A stretch of DNA of 62,111 bases, counting the filler, from Hausera hauseri (lineage: Eukaryota): the NCBI GenBank assembly GCA_046269625.1. It is 11 parts of 11 records of this genome, joined end to end, with 100 filler letters (N's around TTAATTAATTAA, not from the genome) between each part and the next. Parts side by side here need not be neighbours in the genome. Positions count along the whole stretch, not along the records: positions 24,739 to 30,048 come from JBJURY010283394.1; 10 more parts are not named here. One strand, given 5' to 3'. Numbering within the stretch: position 1 is the first letter of the stretch; every line of letters starts with the position of its first letter. Positions 1,511 through 53,030 of this stretch are shown here, in pieces. Position numbers and translations under genes: made by a program. The notes beneath the pieces are model-generated. The model saw nothing but the letters and a program-made list of their open reading frames with translations. It had not been told where the DNA came from and made no database searches.

Positions 1511-4210
1511 CGCTAGACGGGCCCGGTTTATGTTATACCTAGAAGGACCAGAGCGGTCAAATTGACAGCTAGCTGTCCTTTAATCAGTTTCAACAACCGT
1601 TTGACTGATTTTGATGCAGATTTTTACATTTTGTTCAGAAAGTCCAGCACGCAAAGAACCGACAGTGATCACGTGACCGGAAGTAACATTAGTTAAGGCA
1701 CAGAAACTGAAATTAGCATCTAAGTGGTGCTCGTTTCGGTCAACCTGTATAGTCATGTTTTCGTGTAAGCCTATAAGAGTCACAAAAATCTGTGTCAGAT
1801 TTCAAACAATTTTCTGCTGTAACATATAAGCCTGTAAAAATAATGTTAACTTCTAATAAGCTATAATGTCAAAGAACATTTGCTATAATGCTTCTAACAT
1901 CACAGCAATTTTATCATTCTGTGCAAGACTGTTACATACACCGCGTACTGTTCCTGCCTCAAACTTCAGATGGAACAAATTGTTCAGAATAAAAGTAACA
2001 TAAATGAAAATGAAATAAAGCAAGAAATTAAATAATATTAATTAAACAATTGTTTGTCCTTACTGACAATATGTCAGTATCTGGCAGTTCTAGCTCGCGT
2101 TGCTGCTTTGACCAACTGAACAGTCCACGCACGTCAGTGGCTTTACAAAATGATCGATACAATTGCCACAGATAGCTTGGGAACACTGCGAACAAACGTC
2201 TTGTTCCTTTTACACTGTGAAACTTGACACTGACGACGTTTCCCACTGGCAGTAGAGGTGACAACGCCAGCAGTCAATGGAGTACCAATGTCATTTTTTC
2301 TGCAGTTACGTAGCTCGTTTGCCAACTGAAAAATGAACTGCCGTCTTGAGATGCGTGAACCAGTTACCAACTTGTACAACATCTGTGCATTGATAGCTGT
2401 TAGTTTGGACATCAACTGCAAACTTTGTGGTGTTGTAGAATTCAAATGTTTCAAGTTTCTTTCTCTGATCAGTCACGATGGTCACTGAACTGTGAAGTGA
2501 ACTCATTATAATGACATTCTTTGTTGGTTTGCACCTGTAGATTGTCAATGTGCAATTCTCATTTTTCAACAGTCGTATTGAATACAACTGAGCAGACGTG
2601 TTTGCAGTTGACGGTGGTAGTTCACGACGTGAACGATTGACGGTGCCAACCAAACTGGTCTTTTTATCTTGTATTTGCTTCAGCAGGTTCAGAAACGTGA
2701 AAAATTATCTATTGTGACCTTGTGACCTTTGCCGAGGTACAGATCCATTAGACGGAGAATCACACATTCAGACAACATTTGCCCTGGTGTACGTGGCTCG
2801 TCTCCCTAGATACGGAAAGCCGTTGACTAGGTATTTTGTATTTACATCAACAGCAATCCAGAACTTGATACCAAACTTGTCAGATTTATTAGCCATATAT
2901 ACTGAGTCCAGTGACAGCGAGGAATAACTCTTCGTCGATGGTTATGTTCTCACTAGGAATGTAACACATCTTGCTGTTGACTATAAATCGATTTCATATT
3001 TTTGACGCTATGGCGAACTTGTCGTTCATTATCTGTGCACCTCTTATTGATTTCATATCGAACCTCAAAAACTTAATTATCTCATTGAACCTGTTTTGAT
3101 TCATTGTAGTCTTACAAACCGACAATCCCAACTCAGTGTACCACAGGCTTTTTAGTGGTAAACCTTTAGCACCAGTAACTCCACGTACGTAGAGAATGAG
3201 TATGAATGCTTCCAATCCATGATCCATCTTGTAGTCGTCGGTGACCTTTTTCTTGTGTGCAACGCTGTATGTGTCGAAGAAGTGACTCGTCAATTATGAG
3301 TGAAAACGCGCTGAGGGCCAATCCTTCTTTCACTCAATGAGAGGCGTATGGTGTTGGTCCAGGTTTGTTTTTGAAGACATCGTGTTGTGGTCTTATACGA
3401 ACACTTTCAGTTCCAATCACACCTTCGTTCCACACAGACCCATTGCGACCTCTGTCAACATCAAACCTTTGGCTACCGTCGTCAGAATAGGAAAGGATGT
3501 TGCAACTGCTTCTATTTCCACGTCCTCGACCTCGACCTCTTACCGGATGACCACCGCGACCAGTAGATGTATGATGTCCATTACTAACTGCAGCAACAAA
3601 GTCTTTATCGTATTTGCCCTGGTAGACACGCTGTTTGTTGTACTGATGACCGAATTACTTACAGTGACAAAGGTGGCAACTTCATCAGACCCAGACTTAT
3701 TCCTTTCAATTTTTTCACTCTCAGCACTGTCTGAACTATCTTGTACGATAGGGCCATGGTTGATCTCATAGTCCAACAGTGAATCACGGCTAGTTTCACT
3801 GTCTTCTCCAGAATCATCAACGGCAATTGGTTGCATAAGCTGCAGACATTGGAGACCACTCAAACGTTGAGGTCGATACATCGTTTCACTAAAAATATGT
3901 AAGTAAACTCGACAAAATGAAGTAAATTAAAATAACACATACAGTTACATCGAAATTACATCATACAATTATGTCATTCTAAGTCACGTGATCATACCAG
4001 CAAGTAATAATTAACAGCGTTTTCTTGTCTGTACATGACAACGGTCAAATTGACCGCTATGGTCCTTCTAGGTATATCGCGTTAGACATGGCAGCCGATT
4101 AGGTGGTTTGAATAAGTTTGCACCAGTCTTCGTAGATTGGGGACATTAACAAAGTCGTAAAGTTTCATTATCCGATCTGTACAAATGTGCGCGTTGCGAA
4201 GTATCCAGTG
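1511..4210 (-). mobile_element. Degenerate piggyBac (PGBD4/Looper-like) DNA transposon, apparently intronic in the RSK gene
   Basis: TTAA at 1507-1510 and 4211-4214 with imperfect termini CGCTAGAC / ATCCAGTG. A stronger subterminal inverted repeat TATACCTAGAAGGACCA-AGCGGTCAA-TTGAC lies at 1534-1566 and about 4044-4076. Broken transposase on the minus strand (about 2143-3881): MNQNRFNEIIKFLRFD, PDKFGIKFW, LVGTVNRSRRELP, YNTTKFAVDV, and a C-terminal Cys-rich tail RRQCQVSQCKRNKT. Confidence 0.9.
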
Positions 4211-5050: not shown

Positions 5051-5396
5051 CATTAATTAAATATTCATAAATTTAATTCACATTATTCAAATGACATTTA
5101 AAGCAGATTACAAAAATCTAAGACAAATTAACTTTAGTTAATATCTTGGTTTTATCAAGTGAGTTCAAATAAATAAGAAATGTGCTTTGAATAGTCGGCG
5201 AAATGCATCGCCCTTTATTCCAAAAAATATCAAGTTTTTTCTTTTATTTTTACGTTGTCATGACAATGTGACCTCAATTCTTTGACACTTTTATTTTTGA
5301 ATATTTCATGAACACTGAAATTTGATAACTATTTTTAATTTAACAGAATTGTATATTTATAAGAAAATAATGAAAATTAAATAAAAATTTACTTTT

Positions 5397-7580
5397 ATGG
5401 AAACCAACAAAACAGACGTTTCTAGCAGAATTAGTTCGTCGTTGCCATCAGAAAATCCGCCGACGTCATTTGTTTCATCGAATTTTGACAATTTAGAAGC
5501 AGCACGAGTTAAAGCTGCCGAACAAATAATCAATGTTGACCAATTTTTTCTGGACATTAACGGAGAAGTAAAAGTTTATTCGGACAAATTCTCGCTGTTG
5601 GGCGACAATTCGGAGGAGCTGAATGACGAACAAACAAGTAAATTAATGATGAATCAACGTTGTTATTTTTTGTCCATAGAATTCGATGATCAAGAGCTAC
5701 AAGGCGATGACGATTTATTGACCCATTCGACGGGGCTAGCCGAAGAATACGCTGATGAGAATGTCAATTTCGCGGCAAATTTCCTGCCGACTGCGTGGAC
5801 AACTGCGGTGATTTATTCGCTACCGACGATCCGGCAAGTGCTGGACACACGTGCCAGCGAGAAATACGCTTCAGGAATGATTGAACTGAAATGCGGCGAA
5901 TTGACAAAAGCACTCACGGCATTTACCCACTGCATTCATTTGAAGCCGAACGAACCGTCGTATTTCGCAAATCGGGCTGAAGTTTATTTCCATTTGACGG
6001 ATTTCCAATCGGCGATACTCAACTACAAACGAGCGTGCATTCTCGATCCGGACAATCGCGATTTTTTCAATCGGCTGACATTCCTCTACGTTTTCCAATC
6101 ACAGATTTTGTTTGACCAGGGAATGCATTCATCCGCACTGGCATCACTGAGTAAAGCCATTGAAATGTGTCCGGATAATCCGTCGTATCAGACACGAGCG
6201 ATCGCTTGTCTCGCTGCAATGAATCGCCATAGCGAATGTCTCGCGCTCATCGACAAACAAATCGCCGATGATAATGGCAATGCGGATTTTTTTGTCCTTC
6301 GTGCGAAATTGCATGCGTCATTTCGTAATTTTACTCTGTGCTACTACGATTTAATTGATGCGTTGAAAATCGATCCGGACCATTGCGAAGCTAAGCGAGT
6401 TCTTCAGCGAATGGCTGACGAGGCCGATATGCTGAAATGCCAGTCTGTCGAAATGGGATTGTGCAGTCGGCTGCATGAAGCCGTCAACAAAATTTCGTTG
6501 GCAATCGAACTCAATCCGATCGTTGGGGATTTCCACGTGAAACGCGGTGCATTTTATCGGCGGATGAAAAATTTTACAGCGGCGATCGACGATTTTTTGA
6601 TGGCGATGGATAAAGTTGATCATGATGAGGAACACGATACGTACCGACTAGCACAACGGCAACTCGTTCTGACTTTCAATGACTTTGCCGTTCAGTGCTT
6701 CTTCCGAGGATGCTACAATGAGGCTCTCACTCTGCTAAACAAAGCCATTCAGTCAGAAAAATCCGAACCGGGATTCTACATCAATCGCGGAGATTGTTTC
6801 TACAAATTACAACAATGGGACTTTGCACTCGCCGATTATGAACAAGCCGCTGGCATGTCGGATTTGTTCGCTTCGACGGGAAAAAGTCGAATGGCTCTTG
6901 TCCATTTCTCCACAGCCCAACGAGCATTCTCATCCGAACGGTACGTCGAAGCAAATAAATCTCTCAGCCTAGCACTAAATAATAACGCTTATCAGTCAGT
7001 ATTTTGGAATACCCGCGCTCGAACAAGGTATCTGCTGGAGGACTTTAGAGGGGCTCGTATGGATTTGATTTGCGGCATTCTACTGGCCGGCTTTGACAAG
7101 TCGATTGAATCAACTTTCCATCGACTTTTTCCTGGCAAAACAATGAACCAAGTGCTGGAATCAAAATTGGCTTCAAATGCCAAGAAAGAATTTATTCAAC
7201 TGTCGGCTAATCAGCGACACAGTCAAGGAAATACGGATGCATTAAATAAATCATTGATTCCACAGCAAACTGATAATTTTCCACACAATGATATAAATAC
7301 AGAGAAGGAACAGTTGCTCGAATCTCTTGTAGAGTGCCGATATGTTGAGCAACAAATTAAACTGATGACTGACGATAAAAGTTTTATGAAAAATAAAATC
7401 GGTGCCGTCCGTCGGTCGTCGATTGAGGATATAATACTGCCTGACAATAGACTGTTGGTTGAACGTATAGTCGGTAAAAGTGACGGAACAAAGTATTTAA
7501 TGAACAGAAATGGTTGTCTTGTTAAAGTTACTGAACCGAAAGGATGGCGAAAATTTAAAAGTGGTATTGAGAAAACATAA
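5397..7580 (+). CDS. TTC16: Tetratricopeptide repeat protein, TTC16-like, single-exon ORF of 727 aa
   Basis: Serial TPR motifs with TTC16-type segments RAEVYFHLTDFQSAILNYKRA, AQRQLVLTFNDFAVQCF, LLNKAIQSEKSEPGFYINRGDCF and GARMDL...RLFPGKTMNQVL. Uninterrupted frame, higher GC than the flanks. Confidence 0.88.
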   Translation: METNKTDVSSRISSSLPSENPPTSFVSSNFDNLEAARVKAAEQIINVDQFFLDINGEVKVYSDKFSLLGDNSEELNDEQTSKLMMNQRCYFLSIEFDDQELQGDDDLLTHSTGLAEEYADENVNFAANFLPTAWTTAVIYSLPTIRQVLDTRASEKYASGMIELKCGELTKALTAFTHCIHLKPNEPSYFANRAEVYFHLTDFQSAILNYKRACILDPDNRDFFNRLTFLYVFQSQILFDQGMHSSALASLSKAIEMCPDNPSYQTRAIACLAAMNRHSECLALIDKQIADDNGNADFFVLRAKLHASFRNFTLCYYDLIDALKIDPDHCEAKRVLQRMADEADMLKCQSVEMGLCSRLHEAVNKISLAIELNPIVGDFHVKRGAFYRRMKNFTAAIDDFLMAMDKVDHDEEHDTYRLAQRQLVLTFNDFAVQCFFRGCYNEALTLLNKAIQSEKSEPGFYINRGDCFYKLQQWDFALADYEQAAGMSDLFASTGKSRMALVHFSTAQRAFSSERYVEANKSLSLALNNNAYQSVFWNTRARTRYLLEDFRGARMDLICGILLAGFDKSIESTFHRLFPGKTMNQVLESKLASNAKKEFIQLSANQRHSQGNTDALNKSLIPQQTDNFPHNDINTEKEQLLESLVECRYVEQQIKLMTDDKSFMKNKIGAVRRSSIEDIILPDNRLLVERIVGKSDGTKYLMNRNGCLVKVTEPKGWRKFKSGIEKT

Positions 7581-14462: not shown

Positions 14463-15791
14463 TGCTTCATCATCACGGACCAGGGTCCACAGTTTGAATC
14501 CAACCTGTTCAAATCTCTTGTTAACCGATTGGGGATCCATCACATACATACTACGCTTTATCACCCCAAATCGAATGGCCTTCTAGAACGTTTCCACCGA
14601 ACATTGAAAACGTGACTAAGAATTCTGGCAGAGTCCAACAGTAGTTGGACAAATCTTCTTCCGTTCGTTCTGCTCGGCTGGCAGAAGACTCCGTCCACTT
14701 CTACAGGATGCTCACCTACTGAAGCCTTATTCGGAGCTCCTGTCTGATCATTATTCGAATTAACCGCCCTAGATGACACTGCCACAGATGAGACTATACG
14801 AACAGCGCAAAATCACTTCGTCGAGGTCAGCAAAGATTCGTTCTGCAGGTTATTTCACAATGACAAAACATACTTATCCGAAGATTTGTATTCAGCAAAA
14901 TTCGTATGGCTGAAGAATCAAGCTCCTTGCGGTTTCCAGCCACGGTATCTGGGGCACTAAAAACTGTTACAGCTACACTCGCATAACGCCATCATTTCCA
15001 AAGACGGTAAAGACTTCAAATTACACATCACCAACTTAAAGCCCGCTTTCTTTGTCGACGACACCTTACCAACCGACACATCAACCTTTTTTTTTACTCC
15101 TCCACTCCCTGCTATCACTACATTTATTGCTACACCATTTCCACCTTCCTCTTCCGCGCCTAGTCTTGCTCCATCATTTTCTACACTTTCTACTTTTATT
15201 CCTACCACTCTTCCTATCTCCACCACTACATATTTATCATTTTCCTATTCCACTCTTTCACTCAACACAACTACAATCTCTACTCCAACCTTTTCTTCAT
15301 TTCCTTTATACACCACTACACCTTTCATCACTCCTTCATCTTCTAACACTCTTTCCAATGCCGTTAACCATCCGTCTTCAACAATCCCTCTTCTTTCTTT
15401 GTCTTCTTCTCTTTATTCTGACTCATCTTCGCAGAACACAATACCTACACCAAAATCTACCATTTTTTCCCCAACCCAAGTCTCTGCAGACAAACACATT
15501 GCATAAACACACAACACGCAGAGTCACATTCAGGCAGTATAGTAGGGAAAAATCAGTCGAAAATAGTCAACATCTTATTCACACTAAGCTCAGCTAACAC
15601 ACACTTTTCGTTTTCCGTTTTTTTCTCTCTTTCTTTAATTCTTTATAGTTCGAACTTTGCCACGGGGGGGGGCTGATGTGGTGCCTGCGTTGATCGCCGC
15701 CCTCCGGCCCATTCAGTTGGGCACGGCTGGGTTTTCCTCTGCCGGCGCGTCGGGCGCATAGGCAGGCCCCGTTTTTCTGCCTTGAAAACCA
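14463..15791 (+). mobile_element. 3' part of a CsRn1/Kabuki-type Gypsy element: degenerate integrase, S/T/P-rich tail, PPT, short GC-rich terminal segment
   Basis: [17 protein letters not shown]...[24 protein letters not shown] integrase core, homologous to 48503-49186. G9 tract at 15664-15672, then TGTGGTGC at 15677. Confidence 0.85.
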
Positions 15792-15794
15792 AAA

Positions 15795-16719
15795 TATTCA
15801 AAAATGAGTCACGAAATATTTAATTTGAATTGTATTATTCAAAGTATCCCCAGACGGTGTTACGTATACCATCAATCCGGCATCTTATGTTAACAGTAAT
15901 CATCTCAGTTATTTCAAATTCGTCGGTCGATTCGTTGCGAAAGCCATATTTGACAACAAATTACTGACGTGCTACTTTACCAGAGCATTCTACAAACATA
16001 TCCTCGGCATTCCCATTCGATACACCGATTTGGAGAAAGAAGATTATCAGTTTTTCCGCGGTCTTGAATTCCTTCTGAAAAACGACGTATCGACGATGTT
16101 CCTCGACCAGACATTTTCTATTCAGATCTCAGAATTCGGCAAAACCGAAACGAGAGAACTCGTACCGAACGGGTCCCAGATAATAGTTGTTGAAGAAAAC
16201 AAACAGGAATACGTTCGACTCGTTTGTCAGGAGAAAATGACCGGGGCCATTCGACAACAGTTGAACAGTTTTCTCGAGGGATTTTACGAGATCATTCCGA
16301 AATCTTTGATATCGATCTTCAACGAAAAAGAACTGGAACTGTTGATTTGTGGTCTTCCCGAAATCGATCTCGCCGATTTGAAGGCCAATACGGTGTACAA
16401 TAAATACACACCAGCATCACTTCAGATTCAATGGTTTTGGCAGGCACTCGAATCGTTCGACCAGGAAGATCTCGCCAGATTTATACAATTCGTTACTGGG
16501 ACGAGTAAAGTTCCGCTGGGTGGTTTTGCGAAATTGGAAGGAATGAACGGTCCAACAAAGTTCCAGATTAGTCTGGCATCAACCAGCACCAATCATTTGC
16601 CTGCCGCTCACACATGTTTCAATTCCATTGATTTGCCTCCTTATGAAAGTTTTGATAAGTTACGCAATCGGCTTCTGACAGCAGTCAGAGAATGCAGTGA
16701 AGGTTATGGAATGATTTGA
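15795..16719 (+). CDS. HUWE1: C-terminal HECT domain of a HUWE1-type E3 ubiquitin ligase (terminal exon or truncated copy)
   Basis: Frame open from 15829: [44 protein letters not shown]...[25 protein letters not shown]...[23 protein letters not shown]...ECSEGYGMI. Catalytic HTCFN is present. 15795-15830 continues the similarity in another frame. Confidence 0.9.
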
Positions 16720-17110
16720 GAACAGATTCCGATTTGCTACAACACTGACATGTGTATGTATGTTTATACTTATCAATCATCCAGAGAGCCTTGCTTCTTT
16801 ATTTGACTTACTCAGCACATTTGTATATCGATAATAAATCTGTTGCATTGTAATATTCGAATGTTGGTGTTTTGCCACTGAGTCATCATATAAATATTTT
16901 GTGAGCGTTAGCGTGAGTTTGAGTGTTTGAGTGCGTGTGATTATTTTCTCATCTATCCACTTAGTGTATTGTCGTATGTTTTGGAGTTCAACTGAAACTG
17001 TTGGTTGCGCATAATGTTTTCGTGAAAACACAATACAATGTTTCTTGAGTTTATTTATTGGGTTGCGCAATGACTTTGGTGATTTAATTTGTTAAATATT
17101 TCTTTTCATA

Positions 17111-17199: not shown

Positions 17200-18330
17200 A
17201 CTAGGTGGATCGATTTACGAAAAAAAAACCTTTTGTAGGAATCCACGAGAAATTTCAAGTAAATCCATTAAATCAATAGAAATCTGATTTTTTAAATTCA
17301 ACAACATCCGCCATTTTACAGAAATGGATAAAATTCAAATCTGTTCGGCAATCTATTATGCTTATCTGAAGGGATTGACAGCCTACGAAATTAAAAGGGG
17401 CATGGATGAAACATTATATGAGTCTACTGCATCAGATTATACTGTTTGTTTCTGTGTTAATCAGACGAAGATCGAAGTGAACGCGCAAAAGATGTAACTA
17501 GGTCAGAAAGCATCCATGATATTGTTCTAAAAGATCGCAAAATCAAGCTCCGGGAGATAACAGGTATTACAGGCATCTAATATGACAGAATTTGGAACAT
17601 ATGCTCAATTTGCATATGAAATAGCTTGTTTCGAAATGGGTGCTGCACGTGCTCACAGTCGTTCAAAAACGCGAACAAGTAACAATTTCAGAGGCCTGTT
17701 TGAAAATATTCAGTCACTACAAAAAAATTTTGCGTCGATAAATAACTGTTGGTAAAAAGTGGATCCACCATTTCACACCGGAATCTCAAAGCTATCGGCA
17801 CAGGGGATAGAACTTGGTGAAAGTCGAGGGAAGCGTCAAAAGAAAAACAGGCTGCTGGAAAGGTTGTGGTCACAATATTCTGGGATTCCCATGGTAGTCT
17901 ACTTGCTGACTTCCTTGAAAAAGGAATAACGATAAATAGCGAGTATCACTGTACATTACTAGAAAAGCTGGATGTCGCGATGAAGGTGAAACGACCACAT
18001 TTGGGGAAGAAGAAAATTCGTTTTATGCAGGATAACCGGCCCGCGTACAAGTAGGTCAAGAGCATGCCCAAAATAAATCAGCTACGCTTCGAATTATTTA
18101 TACACCCCACTTATTCTCCAGATCTAACTCGTAGCGACTATTTCCTGTTCCCGGTATTGAAAAGATGGCTGCAAGGAAAGAGATTTTCCTAAGGTAATGA
18201 CATTATCTCTGAAACAAAGGGATATATTGAGGAACTTGACAAATGCAATAAAGGCGCTACACTAAGTGTACAGGGCTAAAAGGAGACGAAGAATAAATAA
18301 AGAAATTACCAAATAATGATTTTACTTAGT
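17200..18330 (+). mobile_element. Heavily decayed mariner transposon
   Basis: Frameshifted transposase motifs: KWVLHVLT (WVPxxL), KWIHHFTPES, AGKVVVTIFWDSHGSLLADFLEKGITINSEY, FMQDNRPAYK, HPTYSPDLTRSDYFLFP. TIRs not clearly resolved. Confidence 0.85.
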
Positions 18331-19518: not shown

Positions 19519-20952
19519 NNNNNNNNNNNNNNNNNNNNNNNNNNNNNNNNNNNNNNNNNNNNTTAATTAATTAANNNNNNNNNNNNNNNNNNNNNNNNNN
19601 NNNNNNNNNNNNNNNNNNTTGTGATTTTGACCAGAACATCACCGCAAAAACTGTAACAGAAAAACCTAATGGATTAACGACTTTACCAATTATATCGATC
19701 ATAGGTTTGCCAACTTTGTGTTCTAAATGTTAATAGCGACTTTTCGATTAGTTACCAAAAATAGCCAGTCTAAGCGCCATAAAGTCGAAAGAAGGAACTA
19801 AGGGAATTGGAACCCCGAGACGATCCCTATGATAGAATAACCTGACAATTACAGATAGGGTTATTCTATCATCAAACAAAGAATTGGTTTTATTGTTTAT
19901 TTCGGAAAACCTATTCCGAAGTAACAGGAATCAAAAAGGAAAGCCTTATACACGGCAAAGATATTAAACAGGCTCAGGTTGAAATCAATCATTGCATATA
20001 TGGATGTATCCTCGCGGGATACCGAATCCATAAACTTGTAGAATAGTTAGATTTACCCGTAACAAGCATGATAGTAATGTGAGATGGAACCGCACCCAGT
20101 GATCACAGAGCAGGTCGGGAAAATCCTATAAAAAGAAACAGTCCACTGCCTACAGTACCGGAAGGATGCTTCAAATTAATGTTAGAAGAGGTAGGCAGTA
20201 AACATACTAAAATTAGTACTGTTATCCGCAAGCCAACGTACACAGTACTTGCGAGATATTTGCGACCTTAAAATGGGACCTCGAAAGGATTCCAGAAAAC
20301 CCGAGGTAAAACTTACAGAGTTCCACTAAACCCGAAAAACTAAGTACGAAACACAGGAGACAATATAGACCCTATTCTCCAACCAGAGTGGTTAAGACCG
20401 CAGAGCAAAGCAATTTAAGAATAACTTTTCAAAGTTCGAACGCAGCGAATTCCTCAGAAAACAAGAATACTAAACCTAGCACTAGCTACGGATTCAGCTC
20501 AAAAGCCAAAACAAATTACGAAAACCAAAAGACATCCCAGATGAAATTCAAGATACCCGAAATACCCAAGAAATATAAAGAAAGAACTCCGTTAAAAACC
20601 ACGCCAATAAGACAAAAGATAGATGAAATACCATCAACGAAGAAAAAAGTATCCCTCTACGATTATTTAATAAAAAAGAAAAATGAAAAACCAAAAGACT
20701 CAACTGTTGATTTTGTATCAATGCCCAAATTTTCTGTTTTAACATTAACACGCGTATTTCAGTACAAAATAAAACATACGTATATGGGTATCCTACCTGA
20801 CATAAACCTGCCAGGGTTTCAAATACTACAAAGAAATAAATATCTCCCCAGTTATAAATCTCGTCACAAATGTCGCTAAAATCCAACATGCGAATGTACC
20901 AATCATAAATTAACCCAGAGTAAACGCCAAGAATCAAGGAAAACTATTTGTA

Positions 20953-22133
20953 TTAGGTCTATAACTTAAAACCCGCCTTCTAGCAATAAACAGCTGTAAC
21001 TTTAACAATAGTCAAATGTTATGTTTGAATAAGACATCATTGGTACTTTTGACTTTTATCAATGATATTCAATATGTAAAATTTTGTGTTAGTGACATCA
21101 ACATAGTCTTTTACTGCGAAGAAAATGTCGGAATTTCAACCAAATAAGCAGCATTTGCAAGAAGCTTTACTTTTCTGTTACAATTTGAAGAAAACCGCTG
21201 CTGAATCTCATTGAATGCTTGGTGAAGCTTATAAGGAACTTGCTTTATCGAAAAAAACTTGGAAGGAATGGTTTCGGCGATATAAACTTGGTGAATGAAA
21301 AATCACGTTCAGGCCAGCCTAAAAAATTCGAAAGTACAGAACTGCAAGCATTGATAGATAAAGATCCAAGTCAAACACAAAGTCAACTTGCAGAAACGTT
21401 GCATGTTACTCATGCAGCCATTTGCAAGCGTTTAAAAGCCATGGGAAATGTATACAAGGAAGGAAGATGGGTACCATATGAGCTGAAAGAAAGAGACATC
21501 GAAAGATGAAAAACCATCTCCGAAATGCTGCTTGCCATATTTCGATAACTCCAAACACCGAAAAACTATTTGCGACCTAGGTCAACCATCGATATCGACG
21601 CAAAAACGAAATAATCATGAGAAGAATGCCATGCTCTGTATTTGATGGGACCAGAAGGGTGTGTTATATTAGGAGATACTTAAACCTGGTCAAACAGTCA
21701 CAGGGGATCTCTACCAACAACAAATGGTTCGTTTGAGCCAAGCATTGTACGAAAAACGACAAAATCTTGCTTCATGACAACGCTCGACGTCACGTCACTA
21801 AGGTGTTCCAGGAAACATTGGAAGCACTTCGCTGGGAAGTGCTACCCATGCGGCTTATTCACCAAACTGTGCCCCTTCCGACTACGGTTGATGACACACG
21901 CATTTGCTGAGGAACACTTCAAGTCTTATGAAAACGTTGAAAAATGGGTCTCTGACTGGATAGTCTCTAAAGATGAGTCGTTTTTCGCCGTGGGATCTGC
22001 TTATTGCCACAAAGATGGAAAAACGTCATATCTAACGATGTGCAATACTTTCATTGATGTATTTTTTTCATTGGTTCTTTAAATGGAGGCTTAATTTTTG
22101 CAAAAATAGGCGGGTTTTAAGTTATAGACCTAA
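20953..22133 (+). mobile_element. Mariner transposon (Mos1-like), both ends intact, transposase disrupted
   Basis: TA TSDs at 20951-20952 and 22134-22135; perfect TIR TTAGGTCTATAACTTAAAACCCGCC; motifs RSGQPKKFESTELQALIDKDPSQTQ, GRWVPYELKERDIER, LLHDNARRH; internal deletions and stops. Confidence 0.95.
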
Positions 22134-24738
22134 TACAAAAAATATTAACGACACGACTGATAAATAGATTATTGCAAACATTATATGGCACACTTAAAAT
22201 CGAAGAAATTTTTTTGAAATGTCAAAATTTCTCTGTTTGAAATGGGGATTTTGAAAAGTGGGAAATGATGTAATATTTGCAATATTTCGTTATTTTATAT
22301 ACATTTATAATTTCTCTGTATTTAATGATTACGGAAAAATGCTCATCCGAAATAAGATCGTTTAAGAAAATAGTGAAAATTATCTTAAAATTATTGATTT
22401 TATCCTTGCACAATATTTGAAAAGAATTTATCTCTGCAAAATATTTTATATTCAACGGTTAGATAAATACTAAATCAGAGCCATATTTTAAAACCAAAAT
22501 TTAATTATTTCGCATGAAATACTGAATACGTAATGATGAGAAAATTCTATGAACGTGTTGTGTGATAAGTTCGGCTGGTGTATATGATGTAATATGAAGT
22601 ATAAAAGTTTATAAATTGCCTACTAAGGTAATTATTACTAAGGTATATAATTACTAATATTTGTATATTGTCACCATCCATAAATTACAAATTTATCGAA
22701 TATTTTTGGACGGAATAAAGATAATATTTAATTACAAAATCCTAGTATAGAATGCAGAAGAATATTACGTGAAAGGCAGCAGGAATAAGTATTGTTCTGT
22801 ATTGTACACATGGTCACTGATCGAGTATTTTATCTTAACTTGTTTTGTCTGTAATTTATGTACTATTTCGACTTGAGCTATTTATATTCTGCTACTTTGT
22901 TGACACTTGTTTATTTATCTCAATTTTGTACTCTTCCACTTGTACGGGGTTATTATACAATTGAGGTGAAGTGGAATGTACCCAGTATTTGTTTTGTCAT
23001 TTAAAACAACTTACTTCTAGTTTCACACTGTTCAGTGACGATATTCCATGGGACTTCTTACCCTAGAGATTGACAACGTGGCATAAAAGGTTATCATTCC
23101 ATTTGTCATGTCCCAATAAAAAGTAAGAAGTGGGCAATCATTTATGCTGTTTTGTTGCTACTGAGGCTCTTATATTCTTGACTGACATACGACAGATTCT
23201 TGGACAGTCCTGATCATTAAACATTGACGAGCATACAAATTTAGTAAAATGTTTATCGAGGTTCGGTTTGATCGTTAAGTAATGCGATAAACTACAGGAT
23301 GTGACACATCCATCGGTAACGGTTTAATGATATTTTATGTAAAGGTTGATTGGTTTTCTCTCGTTTTTCGTATTCCTACTGTTCCATCTCAATATCACCA
23401 CAACTTAATAATATTGAATTTTACAGGGTGTCCGAAAGGTGCTGCACAATAACGTGATTTTGATTTGAATTTACGATAAGTTAAATGATGATATCAAACG
23501 AGATTATTCACTCAAAACATTCTGTAGGTAGTGACACAAATAATGAAACTATTTAAATGGAACAATATCAATGCATCTCGTTTGGTTTTGACGTTAAAAT
23601 TTATTTTATGTAATAGCTTTACAAAGTATACATGCATTTACGTTTAATATATTAAAAGAGAGATATTAATATCCGTTAATTTAAGACAACTAATTAGGCA
23701 ATCTGACATAAAAATGTGAGGGAAACAAATAAAAGTTTAGTTAAACCATATAAAAAATACTTACAAGCAATTTTTAACTTATGTTCAACATTCAAAGCTT
23801 TATTTGCGGCTACATGGGTGACCTCGCAGATGAACCTTGTTAAATGCATCGAACGCGACACATTGCTGATTACCAAGGTACTCATTAACTTTCCACCGTT
23901 TTCTTTATTTCCAATCTAAATTCGAGCATAACATTAAAATATCTTAGTAAATTTTGGTCTCAATAAAATAAATGCAAATTTAAAATGGCATACAATGTAA
24001 GAAGATCTGAAAAAATATTTCCTAATTATTTTCCCGAGTTTTCTTTGCCGATGTATGTCCTCCTAATATTCCATAGTGATATTGTCTTAATATTGTTGCA
24101 TGATTAACTTTAGGCAATACAAATAATAATGGGTTTGTTTTTTATAGTAAAGTATATATCCAATGGTATGAATGAAATTATCTTAATAAACTCTTGTGAT
24201 TGTAGTATACTGTGAAGTATATAAGGTAGATTGTTAAATACAACGTATTCGGCGCTGCTTATCCAGAATGTGGTCATGCAAGATGTTAACATTTGTAATG
24301 ATAGTAGTATATGCGGATTACGTTGCTACGTACAGGTTATAAGGGGTTTCGGGTGATTGTTTTCTATATCGTATTCTTCCTCATCATAGTGCTTTACTGT
24401 ACAACTTAAGACATGGCGTAACATCAGTTTGAGGTATTACTATCGGAATTTTATGTGATACGTAGTCTACATATGCTTTGATTCTTCGGGTTGAACTTGG
24501 TGTTGGATGGCATTTAATGATTGGTACGTTATATTTTACTTCTGCCCTTTTCCAATTTCCACTTATTTCTCGGAATGTAGTTAAGACTAAGGTGTACCGC
24601 TGATCGAGGTGTACGGTTAGACATGTTGAATTAGTTTCNNNNNNNNNNNNNNNNNNNNNNNNNNNNNNNNNNNNNNNNNNNNTTAATTAATTAANNNNNN
24701 NNNNNNNNNNNNNNNNNNNNNNNNNNNNNNNNNNNNNN

Positions 24739-25230
24739 AAAGACCAAGAAAACTCGATGGTAAAGCCGCAATAAGTTTGAAAAGAATCTCAAGGAAAATC
24801 CGTTCATGACTGTAAGTCTAAGAACAGCGTTGTATAGCTCTTTGTAAGGATCAGGGTGTTCGAAGAGTTGTAGAAGATTGTGTATTCGCGTTTTGATTGA
24901 ATTTGGTAAATAGTAGAAAAGACTATGGGCCCTTGGAAGAGATTCGGTGATGTTTGCATATTGGAGCCAGAGACAATGAAATTGAAGCCAGGTTTGGCTT
25001 GAGTATTGACTGTCGATAAAGAATTCAGTACAGTGGTGGCCGAAAGGGAGGCCGGGAGGTGTGACTGTACCGGCGCAGCGTAATATCGGAATAGGATTTG
25101 GATTTTCAGTGGTGTCGATCGAAGGTAGCGAGTTCATGCCGCTAAGAATTTTGAAATTGATTTGAAGGAGAAAGGAAGTCTGTCTGAAAAGGAGAAGATC
25201 ATAAAAGTTTTGGATAATGAGACCATTGTA
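24739..25230 (-). pseudogene. gag: 5' part of a CsRn1/Kabuki-type gag, cut by the contig end
   Basis: FFIDSQYSSQTWLQFHCLWLQYANITESLPRAHSLFYYLPNSIKTRIHNL...DPYKELYNAVLRLT is homologous to 52073-52750 (FFLDKTNSSLIWLQFHLQWLKANHI...TPYDMLYESVLHIT). Confidence 0.8.
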
Positions 25231-25354
25231 GGATAAGAAAAAGGTAGAAGTGCCTAGAAGGTTAGCAAGGTGGTGATAGATATGTTGTGTGTGGTATGTT
25301 CTTGCATGTGCGTGTTTTTGTTATTGAGTAAAAAATGGAAGGAAAAATAGGGGG

Positions 25355-25462
25355 TATTAGCAACAGGTGGGTTTTGTGGCGCGTGACGCAAATAAACCCG
25401 GCATTCGGACGGCACTGGCGCGACAGCTCGGCGCGCGACACTACCTCGTCGGCGTGGCAACA
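25355..25462 (+). repeat. 108-bp LTR-like segment oriented opposite to the adjacent gag
   Basis: Preceded by the purine tract GGAAGGAAAAATAGGGGG; starts TATTAGC, ends GGCAACA; AATAAA at 25391-25396; followed by TC-TGG at 25463-25467. Confidence 0.5.
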
Positions 25463-25780
25463 TCTGGGTGGCCGAACTTCCGTAACCGGGTCCGGCAGCC
25501 GCTTGATGATCCATGTAATGAAAGATATTGGGGGTATCCAACTCTGCCGATTGTATTAAATCACGGATTAAGATGAAATTATTTTTTGGTTTAAGAAACA
25601 ATGCAATAATCGCATCGTGTCGGTGAATGACTTGCAAAACGTCTTTCGTCAAGTCGGTAATTGGTGTTGATGTATTGGAAAGCAGATGAGTTGCAGCACA
25701 ACTGAATATGGCATTGGTAGTGTTGTCGTGTCTTTTCTTTTTTTCTCCTTTCTCGTTTCCCCCTTTTTCCGGGGGGGGAA

Positions 25781-26415
25781 TGTGGTGCCCCCCATTTNNN
25801 NNNNNNNCATGCCCCGCGGCCGGATGGTTGGACGACGTCGGGCGCCTGACATCGCTTTAATGGCATTTCAGGCCTCCAACCGTGTCGATCTCTTGCGCCA
25901 GGTTCCGTTGCCGCGCGACAGTATGAACATTCAACCTATTTTTTTCTGGATGCTTTCTCGTTAGAAGAATATTTGTGTCTCACTGACATCAACGTTAACA
26001 ATCTCACAGAGAAAGTTGCTACTCATACCGCTGAGTCAATTCTGGTCGGTTAGATGATTTTGAGTTTGTCCGATTCCGAAGACGTTTTCTCATCAAATGC
26101 CGGCGAACTCAACGTCGGGGTTACTTTGGAATCGGACAAACTCAAAATCATCTGAACGTCCACAATTGACTCAGCGGTATGAGTAGCAACTTTCTCTGTT
26201 AGATTGTTAACGTTGATGTTAGTGAGCCACAAATATTCTTCTAACGAGGAAGCATCCAGAAAAACCTGGGTTGAATGTTCATACGGTCGCGCGGCAACGG
26301 AACCCGGCTCAAGAGATCGACACGGTTTGAGGCCTGAAACGTCATTAAAGCGATTACAGGCGCCCGACGTCGTCCAATCATCCGGCCTCGGGGCGTGCAA
26401 ACGATGGGCACCACA
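25781..26415. repeat. 635-bp imperfect palindrome (arms 25781-26081 and 26124-26415, 42-nt loop)
   Basis: The arms align as reverse complements over about 290 nt at roughly 90% identity by eye; termini TGTGGTGCCC ... GGGCACCACA; a 10-N gap lies at 25798-25807. Confidence 0.95.
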
Positions 26416-27250
26416 ATGACCTCTGAAGAAATTGCAGTTGAACATGAAATGTCTGGTGGTACCAGTGGCATTTCGAACCACCAGAATATATCTAGCACGG
26501 ATGTATTTTAAGAGTCACATGGCTGTAAGAAAGCCTTTTGTAAATGCATGGCAAGGACGGCGTGTTAAGTGTGTAAAAGATTATCTCAAAAAGCGAATGC
26601 GCTTTTGGAAAATACCTTGTTTACAGATGTGTGCTCCGTTCCGCTTTTCAATGGTGGAAGGCAGCAACGAATGTATAGAAGCCCTAATGAGGCTTTATTA
26701 CGACAGCATCTCCGACCCACTGTAAAACACGGCAGATCTGTTATGGTGTGGGGTTCGTTTTCCTACAAAAGTGTAGGACAAATGAGGATTCTTGAATCTG
26801 GATACAGGATGAATTCTGCTTGGTGTTGCTCAATCTTACAAAATGAGGTGCCCAACACCTTGGCGGAACATTTCGGTAGGTCTGCAAGAGCTAATTTTCA
26901 AGGTGATGAGCACCCTGCCATCGCTTCCGGTTGGTGAGAAGAAAGTGCAGACAGCTTTGGAGTTCACAAATGTCTTGGCCAAGGCAAAGATCCGATTATA
27001 ATCCTATTTTGAATATTTGGTCACTTTAGAAACCAATGTGCGAACTCATTGTCCACAAACTTTGGGTGAACTGAAATCAGCGATTCTACATGTGTGGTGA
27101 CCACGAGATTCCACTATGGTACTGCCAGGACCTTATAAATTCCATGCCTTCTCGACTGAAACTCGTCTAGTGACGAGGCTTCCCCACAAAATGTTAGGAA
27201 TTCATGCCTTTCTGCCTTTGTTCATTTATGCCTTAAAGATTTGCTTGTTT
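26416..27250 (+). mobile_element. 5'-truncated, decayed Tc1-family transposase
   Basis: RKPFVNAWQGRRVK, LFTD, YRSPNEALLRQHLRPTVKHGRSVMVWGSFSYKSVG, FQGDEHPA, WPRQRSDYNPILNIW. Confidence 0.85.
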
Positions 27251-27516
27251 GGTGGTTTAAATTTTCTGAGATTTAATGACCGACACTATTACAACATTCA
27301 TTTTTCATACTGTAGGAGGGCAAATTCTGCATACTTTACGGCTACTACTTTAATTTTTTGATACCTAATTAATAATAATGCTAAAATCATATGAAATTAT
27401 ATTTGTTGCTGTAGTATTTTGTGCAGATAAAATTTTTGTATTGCAGATTAAGTAAATTACTTTTATATACGTAGAGTTCTGATTGAACATTAGTAAGAGC
27501 TAGTTTTTCGAACATA

Positions 27517-28699
27517 CGTGGTGCGTTAGATAAGTCTCTGGACTCGTGTATAAATAGAATGGTGGTAATAATGGCGTTGTTACTATAACTAGCGGTCACA
27601 TTAGTGACTATAAATTTAGCGCTGTCGTGTTTGACGTTGCTTAGGTGAGAGAGTAGGCAGTTTTGTCATTTTCGTGCAAGCGATGTCGTCAAACGTGGAA
27701 TATCATGGCGTCATCAAATTCCTTGTTCCGAAAGGTACTGAGAATAAAGAAATCATCCAACAGCTACATGATGTCTACCAGAACCAGTGCCAATCACGTC
27801 CAACGATTTACAACAGGATTGGGGAGATTAAACTTTGTCGAAAGTCAGTTTTTGACCACGAAAGAGGGAAGACCGCTTGATATTTACGATTAAAAACGAG
27901 AATTGTGATAGAAAATTGTCCTCTGAATGCAGAATCAGCATTTGTGAACTGGAGGAGCGTCTCCACGTTAGTACGTTCACTATTCATGCAATCCTCGTGC
28001 GTCGTTCCCAAATCCATTTGTGGAGAAATGGCTGCTCAACGCCTGGCGTGCTGCAAAGCCAACGTGAAGCTCTACGATAAGTATGGCAATGCTTTTCTTC
28101 GAAACATTGTCACAGAAGACGAATGTCAGCTAAATCAGCTCCACGCAAGCTCCGCAGTGGGGCATTTCTCGGGCGGGCTGCCATTCTTACTGTGTTCTGG
28201 GATATTCGCGGCATTATTTAGATCGATTTCCTGGACCGACAAGCCACGATGAACTCACAGTACTACAGTGAGCTCATGCGTGATGTGCGAAAACGTCGGC
28301 GAAAATCTCCAAGCATCCCTCTCTGGTTGTTGCATGACAACGTTCCAATTTACACGTCACGCATCTCTGCCACAACAGAATAGTGTGGCTTTGAGCTTGT
28401 GGCGCACCCTCCATACAACCCGGATTTGGCTTCCAGTGATTTTGTGCTATTCCACCACTTCACGCGACATTTGAAAGGCCACCATTTTCAATCCGCAGAA
28501 GAAATGAAGGAGGAAGTGGAGCAAATCCTGACAAAATTTACTCCAAATTTCTTCGAAAATGCCTTTATGGAGCTCATTCAACACTGGAAAAGATGCGTGG
28601 AGGAAAAAGGTTCATACATTGAGAAATGAATGTATGTTGGGTTACGTAAATGTTTGTCTTCTTTTTTGTCGAGTCCAGGGACTTATCTAACGCACCACG
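27517..28699 (+). mobile_element. Mariner transposon, both ends intact, transposase disrupted
   Basis: TA TSDs at 27515-27516 and 28700-28701; TIR CGTGGTGCGTTAGATAAGTC-CTGGACTCG; motifs IVTEDE, FWDIRGII, LLHDNVPIY, HPPYNPDLASSDFVLF, WKRCVEEKGSYIEK. Confidence 0.95.
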
Positions 28700-36717: not shown

Positions 36718-36812
36718 TCAGAAAGGCTGCTAGAAAAATACCTAGAGAGATAAATTGGTCCTAGCTATTTGATGACGAAGATGGAAACAGGCCAACAACT
36801 AGAATTAAAGAT

Positions 36813-38795
36813 GTGGTAAGGAATTTAATACCAACTAACTCAGCGCGAGACAGTAAATCAAATTGGATGTTTAAACTAATAACTCTTATGGTGTTAGTAA
36901 AACAACTTGGTTCAATCACGGTATATGACTGTGATAAGTTTAAAATAGGTCAAAAATATTCTGTGATGGATCTGGAGTTGTGTGAGGATGCCAGACCCCA
37001 CAAGTTAGTAACCATTGAGACAAAGTATTTTTTGTACCAACAACGCAAACTAATCGCAATAGATGGAATAGAGTGCATGTTACGACGATCACAAAGCATT
37101 TTCCACTATGGAAATGTGCACGGACATTCATCAATCGTAAAGCCAACGATGCCACGAATACGTATGAATTTAGATCGACAACAATGCAAACAAGCCAAGA
37201 AAACAGGAAGATTGAGATTGGATGGGATGGCGTTAGAATCCCAGCCAGAAAGGATAATTCTGGTGTACAAAGTAGCAATTGGGAAATTTGACATTCACAC
37301 TGGATACTGTAAAGAAGGTGAATACGATACAGGAAAAGGAAGAAAATCAGGAATAATAGTAGTTGATTTCTATGAGACAAAGATGAGGAACCAAAAGATG
37401 ATGTTTTGTAGCGTTACAAAAACATATACAGAAAATCAGAAGTGTCATATCCACGACGGTGCATGTACTTTCCGAAATTCGATAGTTATTTGGACTCCGC
37501 CACCTATGAATGATTATAACTGTATTAAAATAAAAGAGGTAAATTTGAACAGAACCACGGAAAAAAAATATGTAGACAAAACCGACAATAATGCCAGGTC
37601 AAGGAAGGACGTCGCTGAGGAGTCTACACCCACGATTCTGATCTCCAAAGATCACGGATTAAAGTTCATTAAAAGGCAAATGCTTTCTAGATGTAATGTA
37701 GTAATGTGCTGACACAAATTATGGAGCCTTCTTCGTAGCAGAAGTAGCAATAACTACTTTTGCTTTGGAACACAAGATGTAAGAATAGAAGATTACTTGA
37801 AGAATAGAGATGATTACTTCTATTATAAAGGGCAAATTGGACTAGCAGACTTATATCGCAAGATGATTGCAAACGACTGTAAATTGGACATAAAAATTAT
37901 GAGAACCAAACTAGCCTTAATCTATACAAATCCAGAACTGGCGTCACCTGTAATTCCGATGAATGTAGGCATTTTCGGAAGAGTTACCAGAGAAGTTCTG
38001 TTGACCTACAAATGCAAAAAACGAAATGTATCCCTGAAAGTGGAGGAAAAACGTTGTATCCAAGAATTGCTTGTTATATATCAGAAAGTATCTCCATTGG
38101 CTATGTCACTTACAAGAGTTTTGCTAGAAAACTCGACACAGCCAACAATTTTGAAAGAATGCAAAGCAGGTTTAGGGGAACCTATGTTTAAGGGAAGTGA
38201 GACAGATTGGGTAAGCGTGCCAAATGGGGGAATAATAGCTACGCCTTGTAAATTAACTGGAACAAATTTGTTAAAAGGAATAACAGACGATAAGTTTGCC
38301 GACACTGCAAGTAAAGGGATTTACAGACCCAAGGAAATTGAAGCCTTCGGACATTTCTTAGCCTTCCCTCAACAGCGTTCGCATGAGTTAAATAGAGTCC
38401 TGTCAACGGTGATGGATGTCACCCGCTATCAAACAAAATGGGAATTTCTACTTGGCGTTAATCATTATCAAAGAGTCACTACAGAAATACTACATAAAAT
38501 CTGCGGAAGATTTTTAATTTTTGGACAAGCTGCATCAGGATTTTTCGCTATCTACTTTTCGGTACAACTCGTAAAGGCTGTAATTCAATCTATCATAAAT
38601 GACTATGAAATATTTACACTAACCGGATTTTCATGCGAAATTTTTATCGCGATCATACCGCCGTTTGGAAAATTTTTGAAGGCCTACGAAGAAAACAGAT
38701 GGAAAAGCGATGTGGAGAGACACGTTGGTTATTATAATCGGAAACGAAAGAGAAAACTTATATTTTTTATAGGACAAAGAATGACAAAAATTTGA
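36813..38795 (+). pseudogene. env: Envelope glycoprotein of the chuvirus / herpes gB-like (class III fusogen) type, interrupted by in-frame stops at about 37710-37790
   Basis: Signal-like MFKLITLMVLVKQLG, then ITVYDC...YSVMDLELC, IECMLRRSQSIFHYG...HSSIV, QQCKQAKKTG, GYCKEGEY, LYRKMIANDCKLD, EVLLTYKC, CIQELLV, ASKGIYRPKEIEAFGHFLAFP, RFLIFGQAASGFFAIYFSVQLVKAVIQSII. These motifs are colinear with chuvirus-type glycoproteins. Both track ORFs are in the same frame. Confidence 0.85.
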
Positions 38796-39329
38796 AAAAA
38801 GCTATTTGGATGATGATGAGCCTAAGGCAGGAGACGCGATCTCCAAGATAAGCAATCGTAAGACGCTTAGGCCACCTCTGCCAATGCTGCCCCCTTCCGC
38901 ACCGCAATACGAAGACAGCGATAAGAGATTTATTATCTCATATAGTTCGAAATCTACCAAAAGCCTTTGAGTAACGAAGATCCCTATGAAGGGACAAAAC
39001 AATACCGCGTGTTGCGGAAAATGTGCCAAATTAAAGAAAAATCTGATTTATGCCGCTAATCGGTGGATGATCACAGAATGACATAGTCCCCAAGGATTTC
39101 AAGGAATATAGAAACTAAATCATTAATTTGAGATAATCCACGAATGCAATCCTTCCATAACCAAAACAACCGAGAACTGCTAATGCAATACACCGAAACG
39201 AGACAACGAAAACAGTGTAAATAATGGATTATATCCCATTGAGGAATTAAGACAAGTAGCCGAGAATAAAGCACCAGTAATAAGTATAAATGGGTACAAG
39301 ATATCCGTCGTTAAACAACCTAAGATAAA

Positions 39330-41590
39330 AGAAGGTAAACCTTTCGACAAAATTAGTATTGACGATTGGGAAGTATACGCACTAGTAGATAGCGGGTCAG
39401 AGAAATAATTTATAAAGGAGGGATCGATACCAAAAACACTACGGAATCAACCACGTTTACCACAAGCAACCGACCCCGGAAGTATAGAAGCTTTCTGACA
39501 AGAATCACGACCAAAATTTAAGTGGAATCCTAATCTTAAAATAATGGGACAAACATTCCAACATGAATTTTCTATAATGGAACACCTAAACGACGACGTA
39601 GTATTAGGGTGTGATATATTAATACGTCTACCGAACGTCGCGATAGATTTGAATACCTCAAAGTTAGTCGAGCTCGGAACAATGAAAGGAACTAAGATTA
39701 ATAAGGAAAAAGAACCCAAAGAAGTATGGATTCCGGTCGAAAGGAACATTCCGCCTAGAAAGAAATTGTTTATATTCGTGCAAATCTGTCAAGAAAATGA
39801 TTTGCCAATATACTTTGATCCGGAAGAAACGCTAAATCCAAGTATAATATTAAGCAATGTAATAACTCGAGTAGCATCAGGTCGAATACCCGTAAGGATA
39901 GTGAATAATGCTCAAATTTCAGTAAGATTATATGATAACACTACTCTAGGGCATACCTACAAAGTATTAGCAACAACGGTTGAAGAGAAACCGTTTAAAT
40001 ACGCTGAATTTCCATCACACGTCGATACGAAGTTTTCACCAGAAGCTTATTGCCAGTTTTACGAATTATTATGTCGATATAAATCAATTATTGCAAAGGA
40101 CGAAGAAGGCATAGGCCGAGCAAAGACGTTAAAATTAACTATACCCCTTAAGAAAAAGCCTGGTTCCAACGATGAAATCAATCTCGTGGAACAGAAAATG
40201 CCAAAATTGTCTCCGCCGTCACATTCCCTAAGATCGGAGATAACCAAAGAGGTAGAACGTATGTTAAAGGCCGATACAATCCGACCAAGTTTCAAATCAT
40301 GGTATTCACCTATTCTTATGGTTAAAAAGAAGGGTACCACGAAACATCGATTTTGTATCCATTATAGAGCATTAAATACTCTCATGATAAAAGATTCTTT
40401 TCCCTTACCATCTGTGAAAGAGGCTCTATATAGATTATCAGGTGCAAAATGGTTTACCACTTTGGACTTACAATCCGGATACTCGCAAGTAAAGATTGAG
40501 GATGAAAATCGCTATAAAACCGCATTTAAAACTTATGACGGCGTATACAAGTTCAACGTTATGCCGTTTGGAATTACTACTGGACCAGCCATATTTACCA
40601 AGATGATGAATAAAATGTTAATGGGAATTGAACATGCATTTGCGTACTTAGATGACGTAATGATTGCATCAAAAGACGAAAAGGAGCATCTGAAGGACAT
40701 TGAAGACACTATTATAAGATTAGAACAAGCCGAGTTTAAACTAAACCCAAAAAAATGCAAATGGATCTAAAACGCCGTGCCCTATCTTGGCTATATAGTT
40801 GAAGAAGGAGGATCCAAGCCTGACAAATCATTACTGAATAAAATTTCAGATAGTATGAAACCTCGGAACCAAAAGGAATTGGGACACTGGTTAGGTATAT
40901 GTGGATATTTGCTACCTAAGTACTGGATTACTCAAAAAATTAATGCACCATTATACCGATTATTGAAAAAGGGAACGAATTGAAGATGGACCGATGTTGA
41001 ACAAAAGATGTTCGACGAAATGAAGAAGATACTAACTAGCGAACCGGTACTTAGATATCCTGACCTAACCTTACCGTTTATTATTAAAACAGACGCAAGT
41101 AAAGAAGGTATTGGATATAAATTGATACAAAAACACGAAGACGAAGAACTAGAATACCAAATCGCTTATTGAGTACGCTCCCTGAAGAAAGCAGAGAATA
41201 ACTATTCAGTGACAGAACTAGAAACATTAGCAGTAAAAGAAGTCTTAAAGCATTTTAACGTTTACGTATATGGACAGAAGATAATAATAGTTACCGATCA
41301 TAAGAGAGTTACAACTTTAAAGAGACGAGCAAACAACCCTGCGTGTAGGTTGAATAGATGGATTGAAAGGATCTCGAGATATAATATTGAATTCCAATAT
41401 AAACCTGGTGTGAAGCATGTTGATGCGGATGCGTTGTCACGACTAAAAACGAAAACAAGTGCTATTGTGACGATGAAAAAAACCAGATGGACGAGTTAGT
41501 AGATCAACAACGAACCTTAGCGTTGAACAAATTCTATTGGCCTAGTATATATATTGATGTGAAAAATTGGGTAAGCGCTTGCGAAGTGCC
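39330..41590 (+). pseudogene. pol: Ty3/Gypsy pol: aspartic protease, RT, RNase H and a remnant of the integrase zinc finger
   Basis: ALVDSGS (39379-39399), VVLGCDIL, WYSPILMVKKK...RFCIHYRALN, LDLQSGYSQV, MPFGITTGPAIF, YLDDVMI, IKTDAS, ELETLAV, YKPGVKHVDADALSR, then KFYWPSIYIDVKNWVSACEV before an abrupt join to LTR sequence. Confidence 0.95.
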
Positions 41591-52923: not shown

Positions 52924-53030
52924 TTTCATTNNNNNNNNNNNNNNNNNNNNNNNNNNNNNNNNNNNNNNNNNNNNTTAATTAATTAANNNNNNNNNNNNNN
53001 NNNNNNNNNNNNNNNNNNNNNNNNNNNNNN

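Follow-up and report, generated by a model that had tools for sequence, protein, structure and literature searches.

What is a long hairpin doing directly behind a PPT, with its far end flush against a Tc1 transposase? The locus lies in the contig at 24739–30048 of the window, by which we mean the whole stretch of DNA analysed here, 62,111 nucleotides made up of 11 short contigs of 4–11 kb that are joined via an N44-TTAATTAATTAA-N44 linker. A single public run, X1, consisting of contigs and possibly derived from the source sample, was aligned onto this contig; the summed X1 contig depth gives a rough idea of abundance and should not be read as a copy number. A parasitic flatworm is the probable host, because a HUWE1-type HECT frame in another contig, the one protein on which this assignment is based, has its top match in Schistosoma (75%, vs 69% for the next match, from fish). 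Elsewhere in the window, 5385–7580 (+) holds a 731-aa intronless TPR-repeat frame that is either a gene or a retrocopy, and the entire contig at 53031–57112 is a 22-bp satellite.

The insert and the interrupted Tc1 copy

The hairpin-bearing insert occupies 24811–26415 (1605 bp), has TG..CA ends and splits an old Tc1 copy. It is flanked by ATGAC on both sides, at 24806–24810 and 26416–26420, and two X1 contig joints (24795→26416 and 24798→26416) bypass it entirely, giving an uninterrupted Tc1. Because these joints skip the insert, the 72 bases left of 24811 are the front of the Tc1 copy that resumes at 26416. The Tc1 transposase piece ahead of the insertion (24739–24805, +) is thus joined to the piece after it (26421–27150, +), which is decayed and matches a Sleeping-Beauty-like Tc1 transposase with an E of 1.8e-5. 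The target-site duplication is 5 bp (ATGAC), or 4 bp (ATGA) if base 24810 is derived from Gag; this base fits Gag in other copies, and Gag-continuing contigs match from 24810.

Thirteen X1 contigs depart from their match at 26415. Their loose ends are mixed (agreement 0.46), and the consensus on the other strand is a T-tract and G-run that resembles a PPT, one unlike the tract at 25771 and closer to the PPT of contig 9. The proposal in the earlier note that 26415 is an integrase-type end is borne out by the duplicated ATGAC, the two joints that skip the insert and the 13 diverging contigs, and the hairpin end does abut the Tc1 transposase as described there, the right junction being crossed by an X1 contig (26310–26670) with 0 differences. 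The insert is therefore integrase-bounded. Most X1 contigs aligned on the locus are 5–20% diverged from it. Other DNA transposon remnants lie at 20947–22139, 1534–4076, ~27500–28690 and ~17200–18300; one element has perfect terminal repeats of 32 bp, another is piggyBac-like (DDE_Tnp_1_7) with repeats of 33 bp, and two copies resemble mariner by eye.

Anatomy of the hairpin

Read directly on the plus strand, a pyrimidine tract at ~25730–25770 is followed by G8-AA (25771–25780) and then by TGTGGTGCCC from 25781, and the right-hand end of the hairpin is GGGCACCACA, with its last base at 26415. The hairpin reported behind this PPT is real and spans 25781–26415 with a loop of 42 nt (26082–26123). 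The left arm (25781–26081, +) has an LTR start in the 3′-LTR context behind the PPT, and the right arm (26124–26415, −) has the same LTR start in a 5′-LTR context, with the TG at 26415 as its integrated end. Between 25808–26081 and 26124–26397, the arms are 274 nt each and 92% complementary, and align without indels over 272 pairs with 23 mismatches (arm divergence 8.5%). The left arm also holds 10 N at 25798–25807, adjoined by three mismatched bases; set in register with the right arm, this gap stands for approximately one base.

The predicted RNA fold of 25808–26397 has an energy of −489.6 kcal/mol (z −43.7), and 0 of 100 shuffles were equally stable. Perfect runs in the stem reach 36, 26, 21, and 21 bp, or 37, 36, 32, 31, and 26 bp when plus-strand G-U pairs are allowed. 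When the 11 window contigs were compared with themselves by blastn (E ≤ 1e-3), this was the sole inverted repeat longer than 35 bp. Two weak miRNA matches in Rfam fell far under their gathering scores and were taken as generic hairpin matches, and a miRNA identity was rejected.

The earlier note had seen the same PPT-TGT junction at 15664–15684 and, on the minus strand, at 47933–47951 (TGT at 15677 and 47940, respectively). The first 8 bases are common to both sites and the arm; the sites themselves lie outside the hairpin contig and belong to other families. Downstream of this match, 58 of 300 and 8 of 300 shuffles, respectively, scored as well against the arm, so that the sequences past the two junctions appear not clearly more arm-like than shuffles. 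An integrase tail, which both of these sites do have, was also considered on the plus strand ahead of the 25771 PPT and was rejected, with 221 of 300 shuffles scoring equally. At 47948–46705 (−), pol and a PPT are followed by a 693-bp LTR, a primer-binding site (PBS) and a frame that looks Ig-like by eye (0 Pfam matches), an arrangement that reflects either copies in tandem or a circular assembly that has collapsed.

Identity of the arms

The X1 contigs give a depth of ~800–1090 over the outer arm, 22–60 over the inner arm and loop, and ~80–240 over the leader described below, compared with 8–9 for single-copy pieces. By this rough measure, the outer arms of the hairpin are deep and its core and low-copy loop shallow (22 in the bin 25978–26154). 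From its depth and the loose-end contigs at 26415, the outer arm is the start of a multi-copy LTR, and since the depth of the core is far below that of the leader and outer arm, most relatives in the genome would be without the hairpin core. Both arms are the LTR start of the Gypsy family itself and not a captured gene, so that the idea of a captured-gene cassette finds no support, although the low-copy inner 100 bp of the arm could be captured sequence.

The 143-aa ORF cited in favor of capture is an open frame of which 121 codons fall within the insert (26053–26415, −), the rest being antisense Tc1. Its length was equalled in 173 of 2000 simulations, stops interrupt the same frame of the other arm, and 0 matches were obtained in Pfam or Atlas; it is no sign of a captured gene.

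Gag and leader of the insert

By its sequence, the insert is a 5′ fragment, in rearranged form, of a Gypsy family that is multi-copy and whose Gag, fused to ubiquitin, is encoded here on the minus strand. Along the Gag strand, an LTR start and the loop come first, followed by the LTR start in inverted form, the PPT and T-tract (also inverted), the leader, the ubiquitin-like domain, and the cut Gag. This reverses the orientation assumed in the earlier note: the T-rich tract and G8-AA (25700–25780, +) are inverted relative to Gag and stand where the PBS would be expected. No PBS was found within the insert, the best candidate having 7 mismatches in 18 positions. The one repeat of the insert is inverted; it has no direct LTR pair, its PPT is antisense to Gag, and pol is absent from this copy. 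Neither AATAAA, ATTAAA nor TATAA occurs in the arm and loop on the Gag strand.

The N-terminal part of Gag (25320–24811, −) contains a decayed ubiquitin-like domain and a DUF7041-type core and is cut at CA; four loose-end contigs before 24810 (agreement 0.94) indicate that other copies continue. It shares 38% identity with the Gag encoded by a nearly complete contig-9 element and matches P0122/P0123 by blastp with an E of 1e-20. A profile built from these two Gags (insert and contig 9) found 51 proteins, 32 of them with a di-glycine motif; a word search with the Gag alone among longer proteins gave 0 of 89 candidates. Among the 23 homologues scanned, DUF7041 was detected in 17 and ubiquitin in 7 at E ≤ 0.05, and four scanned homologues have DUF7041 above this cut-off. 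Homologues also carry a CxxH..C..C pattern, and the Gag of the insert ends before this knuckle. The profile matched nothing significantly among PDB sequences, and none of 142 candidates among viral contigs was a Gag relative; a single 19-mer shared with a viral contig, around which the sequences were not alike, was rejected as chance.

The leader (25257–25796, −) is a frame of 180 codons with no stop; near 25280 it overlaps Gag in a different phase, and it stays open all the way from the arm to the ubiquitin-like domain. This length was reached in 11 of 2000 simulations. The leader is multi-copy to at least 25670 (depth 170–240 at 25462, 25552, and 25667), and sequence searches returned no homologue or Pfam match for its frame.

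A Gypsy clade with ubiquitin in front of Gag is represented in the window at 52930–52076 (−) and 25350–25140 (−), and beyond it at L002:1491–1718 and in P0122–P0172; the ubiquitin of L002 is near-canonical (Pfam E 2e-25). A host deubiquitinase could release such a Gag from the sequence upstream of it. In 6 of 6 loci, the frames ahead of ubiquitin-Gag are open for 90–960 codons and, where a PBS is visible, continue across it (P0122, P0130, P0138, and P0153; L009:231–3992; L001, L002, L004, L005, and L010). Gene calls upstream of ubiquitin-Gag contain pieces of histone H2A, CNOT1/Rrp44, 5′-nucleotidase, and SCC3, which suggests frequent capture of host sequence into the LTR or leader; some of these calls may be gene-caller fusions, and P0153 is a single unbroken frame in L009. 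In the window, 15666–16720 (+) comprises integrase, PPT and ~110 bp of LTR start followed by an intronless HUWE1 HECT fragment with a stop codon, likely a retrocopy captured behind the LTR start. At 36765–41496 (+), remnants of a Chuvirus-type fusion glycoprotein (Monjiviricetes_fusion, E 1e-11 and 9e-30) lie upstream of RT and RNase H frames, and can be read as an env-like gene either within an LTR element or next to one.

LTRs of related elements

A metagenome scan for related elements yielded 11 loci out of 77 candidates, which are distant from the insert (20–38% Gag identity) and so are not representative of its exact family. None of the 11 contains an inverted repeat longer than 54 bp. 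In five loci, corresponding to four elements since L002 and L003 are the same element, an LTR start of 340–400 bp precedes TGGTGTCAGAAG, with Gag coming next, and a PPT is also visible in three of the four. We take TGGTGTCAGAAG to be a primer site of the tRNA-Leu type. A tRNA-Trp primer site was not seen, either as TGGTGACCCC in the window or as TGGTGA[CG]CCC across the 11 loci. Four related loci have too little upstream DNA to show the 5′ junction, and L009 and L010 have long leader DNA with no match to the PBS motif. L002, L003, and L005 are assembled as circular permutations (pol-PPT-LTR-PBS-gag).

The closest relative in the window, in contig 9, has an ordinary 693-bp LTR and a PBS and no hairpin, and wherever a 5′ junction is visible in the relatives, the LTRs are ordinary (340–690 bp) and a PBS is present. 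Because of these junctions and the 0 of 11 loci with a long hairpin, the hairpin is, as far as these sequences go, not general to the ubiquitin-Gag clade.

Origin of the insert

We regard it as an even call that the insert is an aberrant reverse transcript, one-off or few-copy, of the ubiquitin-Gag Gypsy that landed in a dead Tc1 and has since decayed. The starting points are observed: the anatomy of the insert, its duplicated target site, outer arms that are multi-copy, no PBS, and relatives with ordinary LTRs. From these, we infer four steps. Plus-strand DNA would begin at the PPT and copy ~334 nt of the LTR. The strand would then turn onto a same-sense template, which may have been this very strand, its PPT RNA primer not yet removed, or the partner RNA, and copy the LTR start, PPT and T-tract backwards, thus forming the hairpin and losing both the PBS and the remainder of the LTR. 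With no PBS pairing, it would re-enter the minus strand in the leader and run into Gag. The far end would be a CA inside Gag, which either served as a cryptic att site or is what a later deletion, reaching through short homology to the true LTR end, left behind; this Gag cut would be a further event.

A fold-back in reverse transcription is favored because it explains why one arm begins with TG against host DNA, why the other continues through the PPT into the T-tract, and why the PBS is missing; a right arm in host-flank context and a left arm behind a PPT are two contexts that meet in reverse transcription. The snap-back replication product, one of the options in the earlier note, thereby becomes the preferred model on the strength of the TG..CA ends, the duplication, the arm contexts, the signs of one template, the low depth of the hairpin core, and the relatives with an LTR and PBS but no hairpin, with each of its steps kept conditional. 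As to the template, both arms share a base at 26212 (paired with 25993) at which all three aligned contigs differ, and at 25849, 26220, and 26388 a single arm departs from nearly all aligned contigs. One shared and three arm-private sites, the only four that can be polarized, suggest from these thin data a single template followed by independent decay. Several points count against the fold-back: at least two rare events are needed in one copy; the 25771 tract differs from the loose-end consensus and is not established as the usual 3′ PPT of the family; among the X1 contigs listed, none bridges the loop or the N gap; and, of the relatives, which are distant in Gag, L009 and L010 have no match to the PBS motif.

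Neutral decay also fits the arm differences. Thirteen of the 23 mismatches are unable to pair on either strand, and 8 of 10 arm transitions leave plus-strand G-U pairs (p 0.11). Selection for arm pairing was rejected, since a lean toward this strand is also seen in the pair-breaking mismatches (8 vs 2 when taken as G-to-T) and strand-biased mutation explains both; combined, the lean is 16 vs 4 (p 0.012, post hoc, with polarity assumed except at two sites). Across 24811–28660, in the arms and the listed flank sites, private substitutions also seem to lean G-to-T and C-to-T on the plus strand, a weak hint of a transcription- or replication-linked asymmetry.

A genomic rearrangement is an unlikely alternative. 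Two LTR copies would have come to lie tail to tail through nesting or inversion, the center would have been deleted down to the 42-nt loop, and pol and the far LTR would have been lost later. Central deletion of a palindrome made by two different copies gives an asymmetric loop and diverged arms, in keeping with the loop seen here and with arms that differ by 8.5%; with aligned contigs mostly 5–20% diverged, two copies could have differed this much initially, and the dissimilarity of the 25771 tract to the loose-end PPT consensus would also follow. This history, however, requires three or more separate events, none of which disturbed either duplication; a second target-site duplication is not seen, and the arm allele common to 26212 and 25993 suggests one template.

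It is doubtful that the hairpin is instead the design of the family or a subfamily, with a palindromic LTR in which an inverted PPT replaces the tRNA primer site, self-RNA priming through a panhandle, and a present copy that is merely truncated to its 5′ half. One rare event would suffice, and the hairpin has perfect TG..CA ends and sits exactly at the expected position of the 5′ LTR in an insert without a PBS, with a leader frame that is unbroken between the arm and the ubiquitin-like domain just as the frames of relatives run from the LTR through the PBS. The lack of any inverted repeat longer than 54 bp in the 11 related loci, the ordinary 693-bp LTR and PBS of contig 9, and the shallow hairpin core relative to the leader all argue otherwise.

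An assembly artefact, whether an amplification fold-back chimera or a scaffold join of alleles or neighboring copies over the N gap, is very improbable: the assembly is fragmented, X1 is perhaps the source sample, the 10-N gap sits beside three mismatched bases, and among the X1 contigs listed none bridges the loop or the gap, but the arms of a chimera would be identical and here 23 of 272 sites differ, some by private alleles. The duplication and Tc1 continuity also place the sequences left and right of the gap at a single locus, one contig to the right of the gap holds both arms together with the loop, and the right junction is inside a zero-difference contig.

Silencing potential

The perfect runs of the stem would in principle be sufficient for Dicer. 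If transcribed, the hairpin would yield dsRNA against the LTR of its own family, in an animal group without the customary germline defence, and because the arms are the LTR start, the target of any siRNA would be that same LTR. According to PMC8191739, parasitic flatworms have lost Piwi, and RdRP too in the species examined; in Schistosoma, 10.1101/670372 describes an increase in retrotransposon RNA upon Argonaute knock-down. A present-day silencing function of this hairpin has only a slim chance, and the bolder readings, namely a palindromic-LTR, inverted-PPT subfamily that primes itself or a transcribed 'killer' hairpin whose siRNA would act on roughly a hundred LTR copies in a flatworm lineage devoid of Piwi and RdRP, are unlikely even when taken jointly. 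The locus is most likely a decaying accident of reverse transcription, a transposon-derived inverted duplication, and the weight of the finding is modest because it concerns a single decaying copy read from sequence. A Gypsy clade with Gag behind ubiquitin and variable host-derived frames may outweigh the hairpin in importance.

Comparison with known systems

Among the mostly open-access papers searched, judged by titles and the beginnings of abstracts, no report of a palindromic-LTR or ubiquitin-Gag Gypsy was found. The insert shares long inverted arms, a short loop and a lack of coding capacity with foldback elements and MITEs, but its hairpin is not itself flanked by a duplication, a PPT adjoins the left end of the hairpin and the arms are LTR sequence. 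A free-standing MITE or foldback was rejected on the same ground, the matching duplication being found 970 bp away, past Gag, at 24806–10. A TRIM or other non-autonomous LTR element was likewise rejected, as the insert does not contain two direct LTRs with a sense PBS and PPT. Tf1-type LTR elements self-prime, and the insert, like them, has no tRNA primer site; its relatives, however, have a PBS, and nothing indicates that the family lacks one.

Among the systems closest to the insert is the CsRn1 clade of Ty3/Gypsy (CsRn1, PwRn1, and AgCR), which has the DUF7041-type Gag core and the Cys-His knuckle pattern seen in the homologues of the insert. According to PMC2582038, this clade also has a T-tract and G-run PPT before TGT and occurs in flatworms. 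It differs in its tRNA-Trp primer site, where relatives of the insert carry TGGTGTCAGAAG, in lacking the N-terminal ubiquitin borne by the Gag of the insert family, and perhaps in its 4-bp target-site duplication, compared with 5 bp, or 4 bp and an ambiguous base, here.

For the hairpin itself, the nearest parallels come from plants. Mu killer of maize (PMC3440606) and the composite insertions of Ac/Ds (10.1101/2020.01.07.897926) are inverted duplications of a transposon's own sequence that arose via aberrant transposition, with the potential to produce hairpin RNA against the family. The insert is likewise an inverted self-duplication that could in principle give hairpin RNA against its own family. 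Both systems are plant DNA transposons with transcription, siRNA, and trans-silencing demonstrated, whereas the insert is an animal LTR element known from its sequence; it also covers the LTR start alone and is 8.5% decayed. By analogy, a Mu killer-like role is possible, and a self-made LTR hairpin offers a concrete candidate for a dsRNA trigger, the retrotransposon counterpart of Mu killer.
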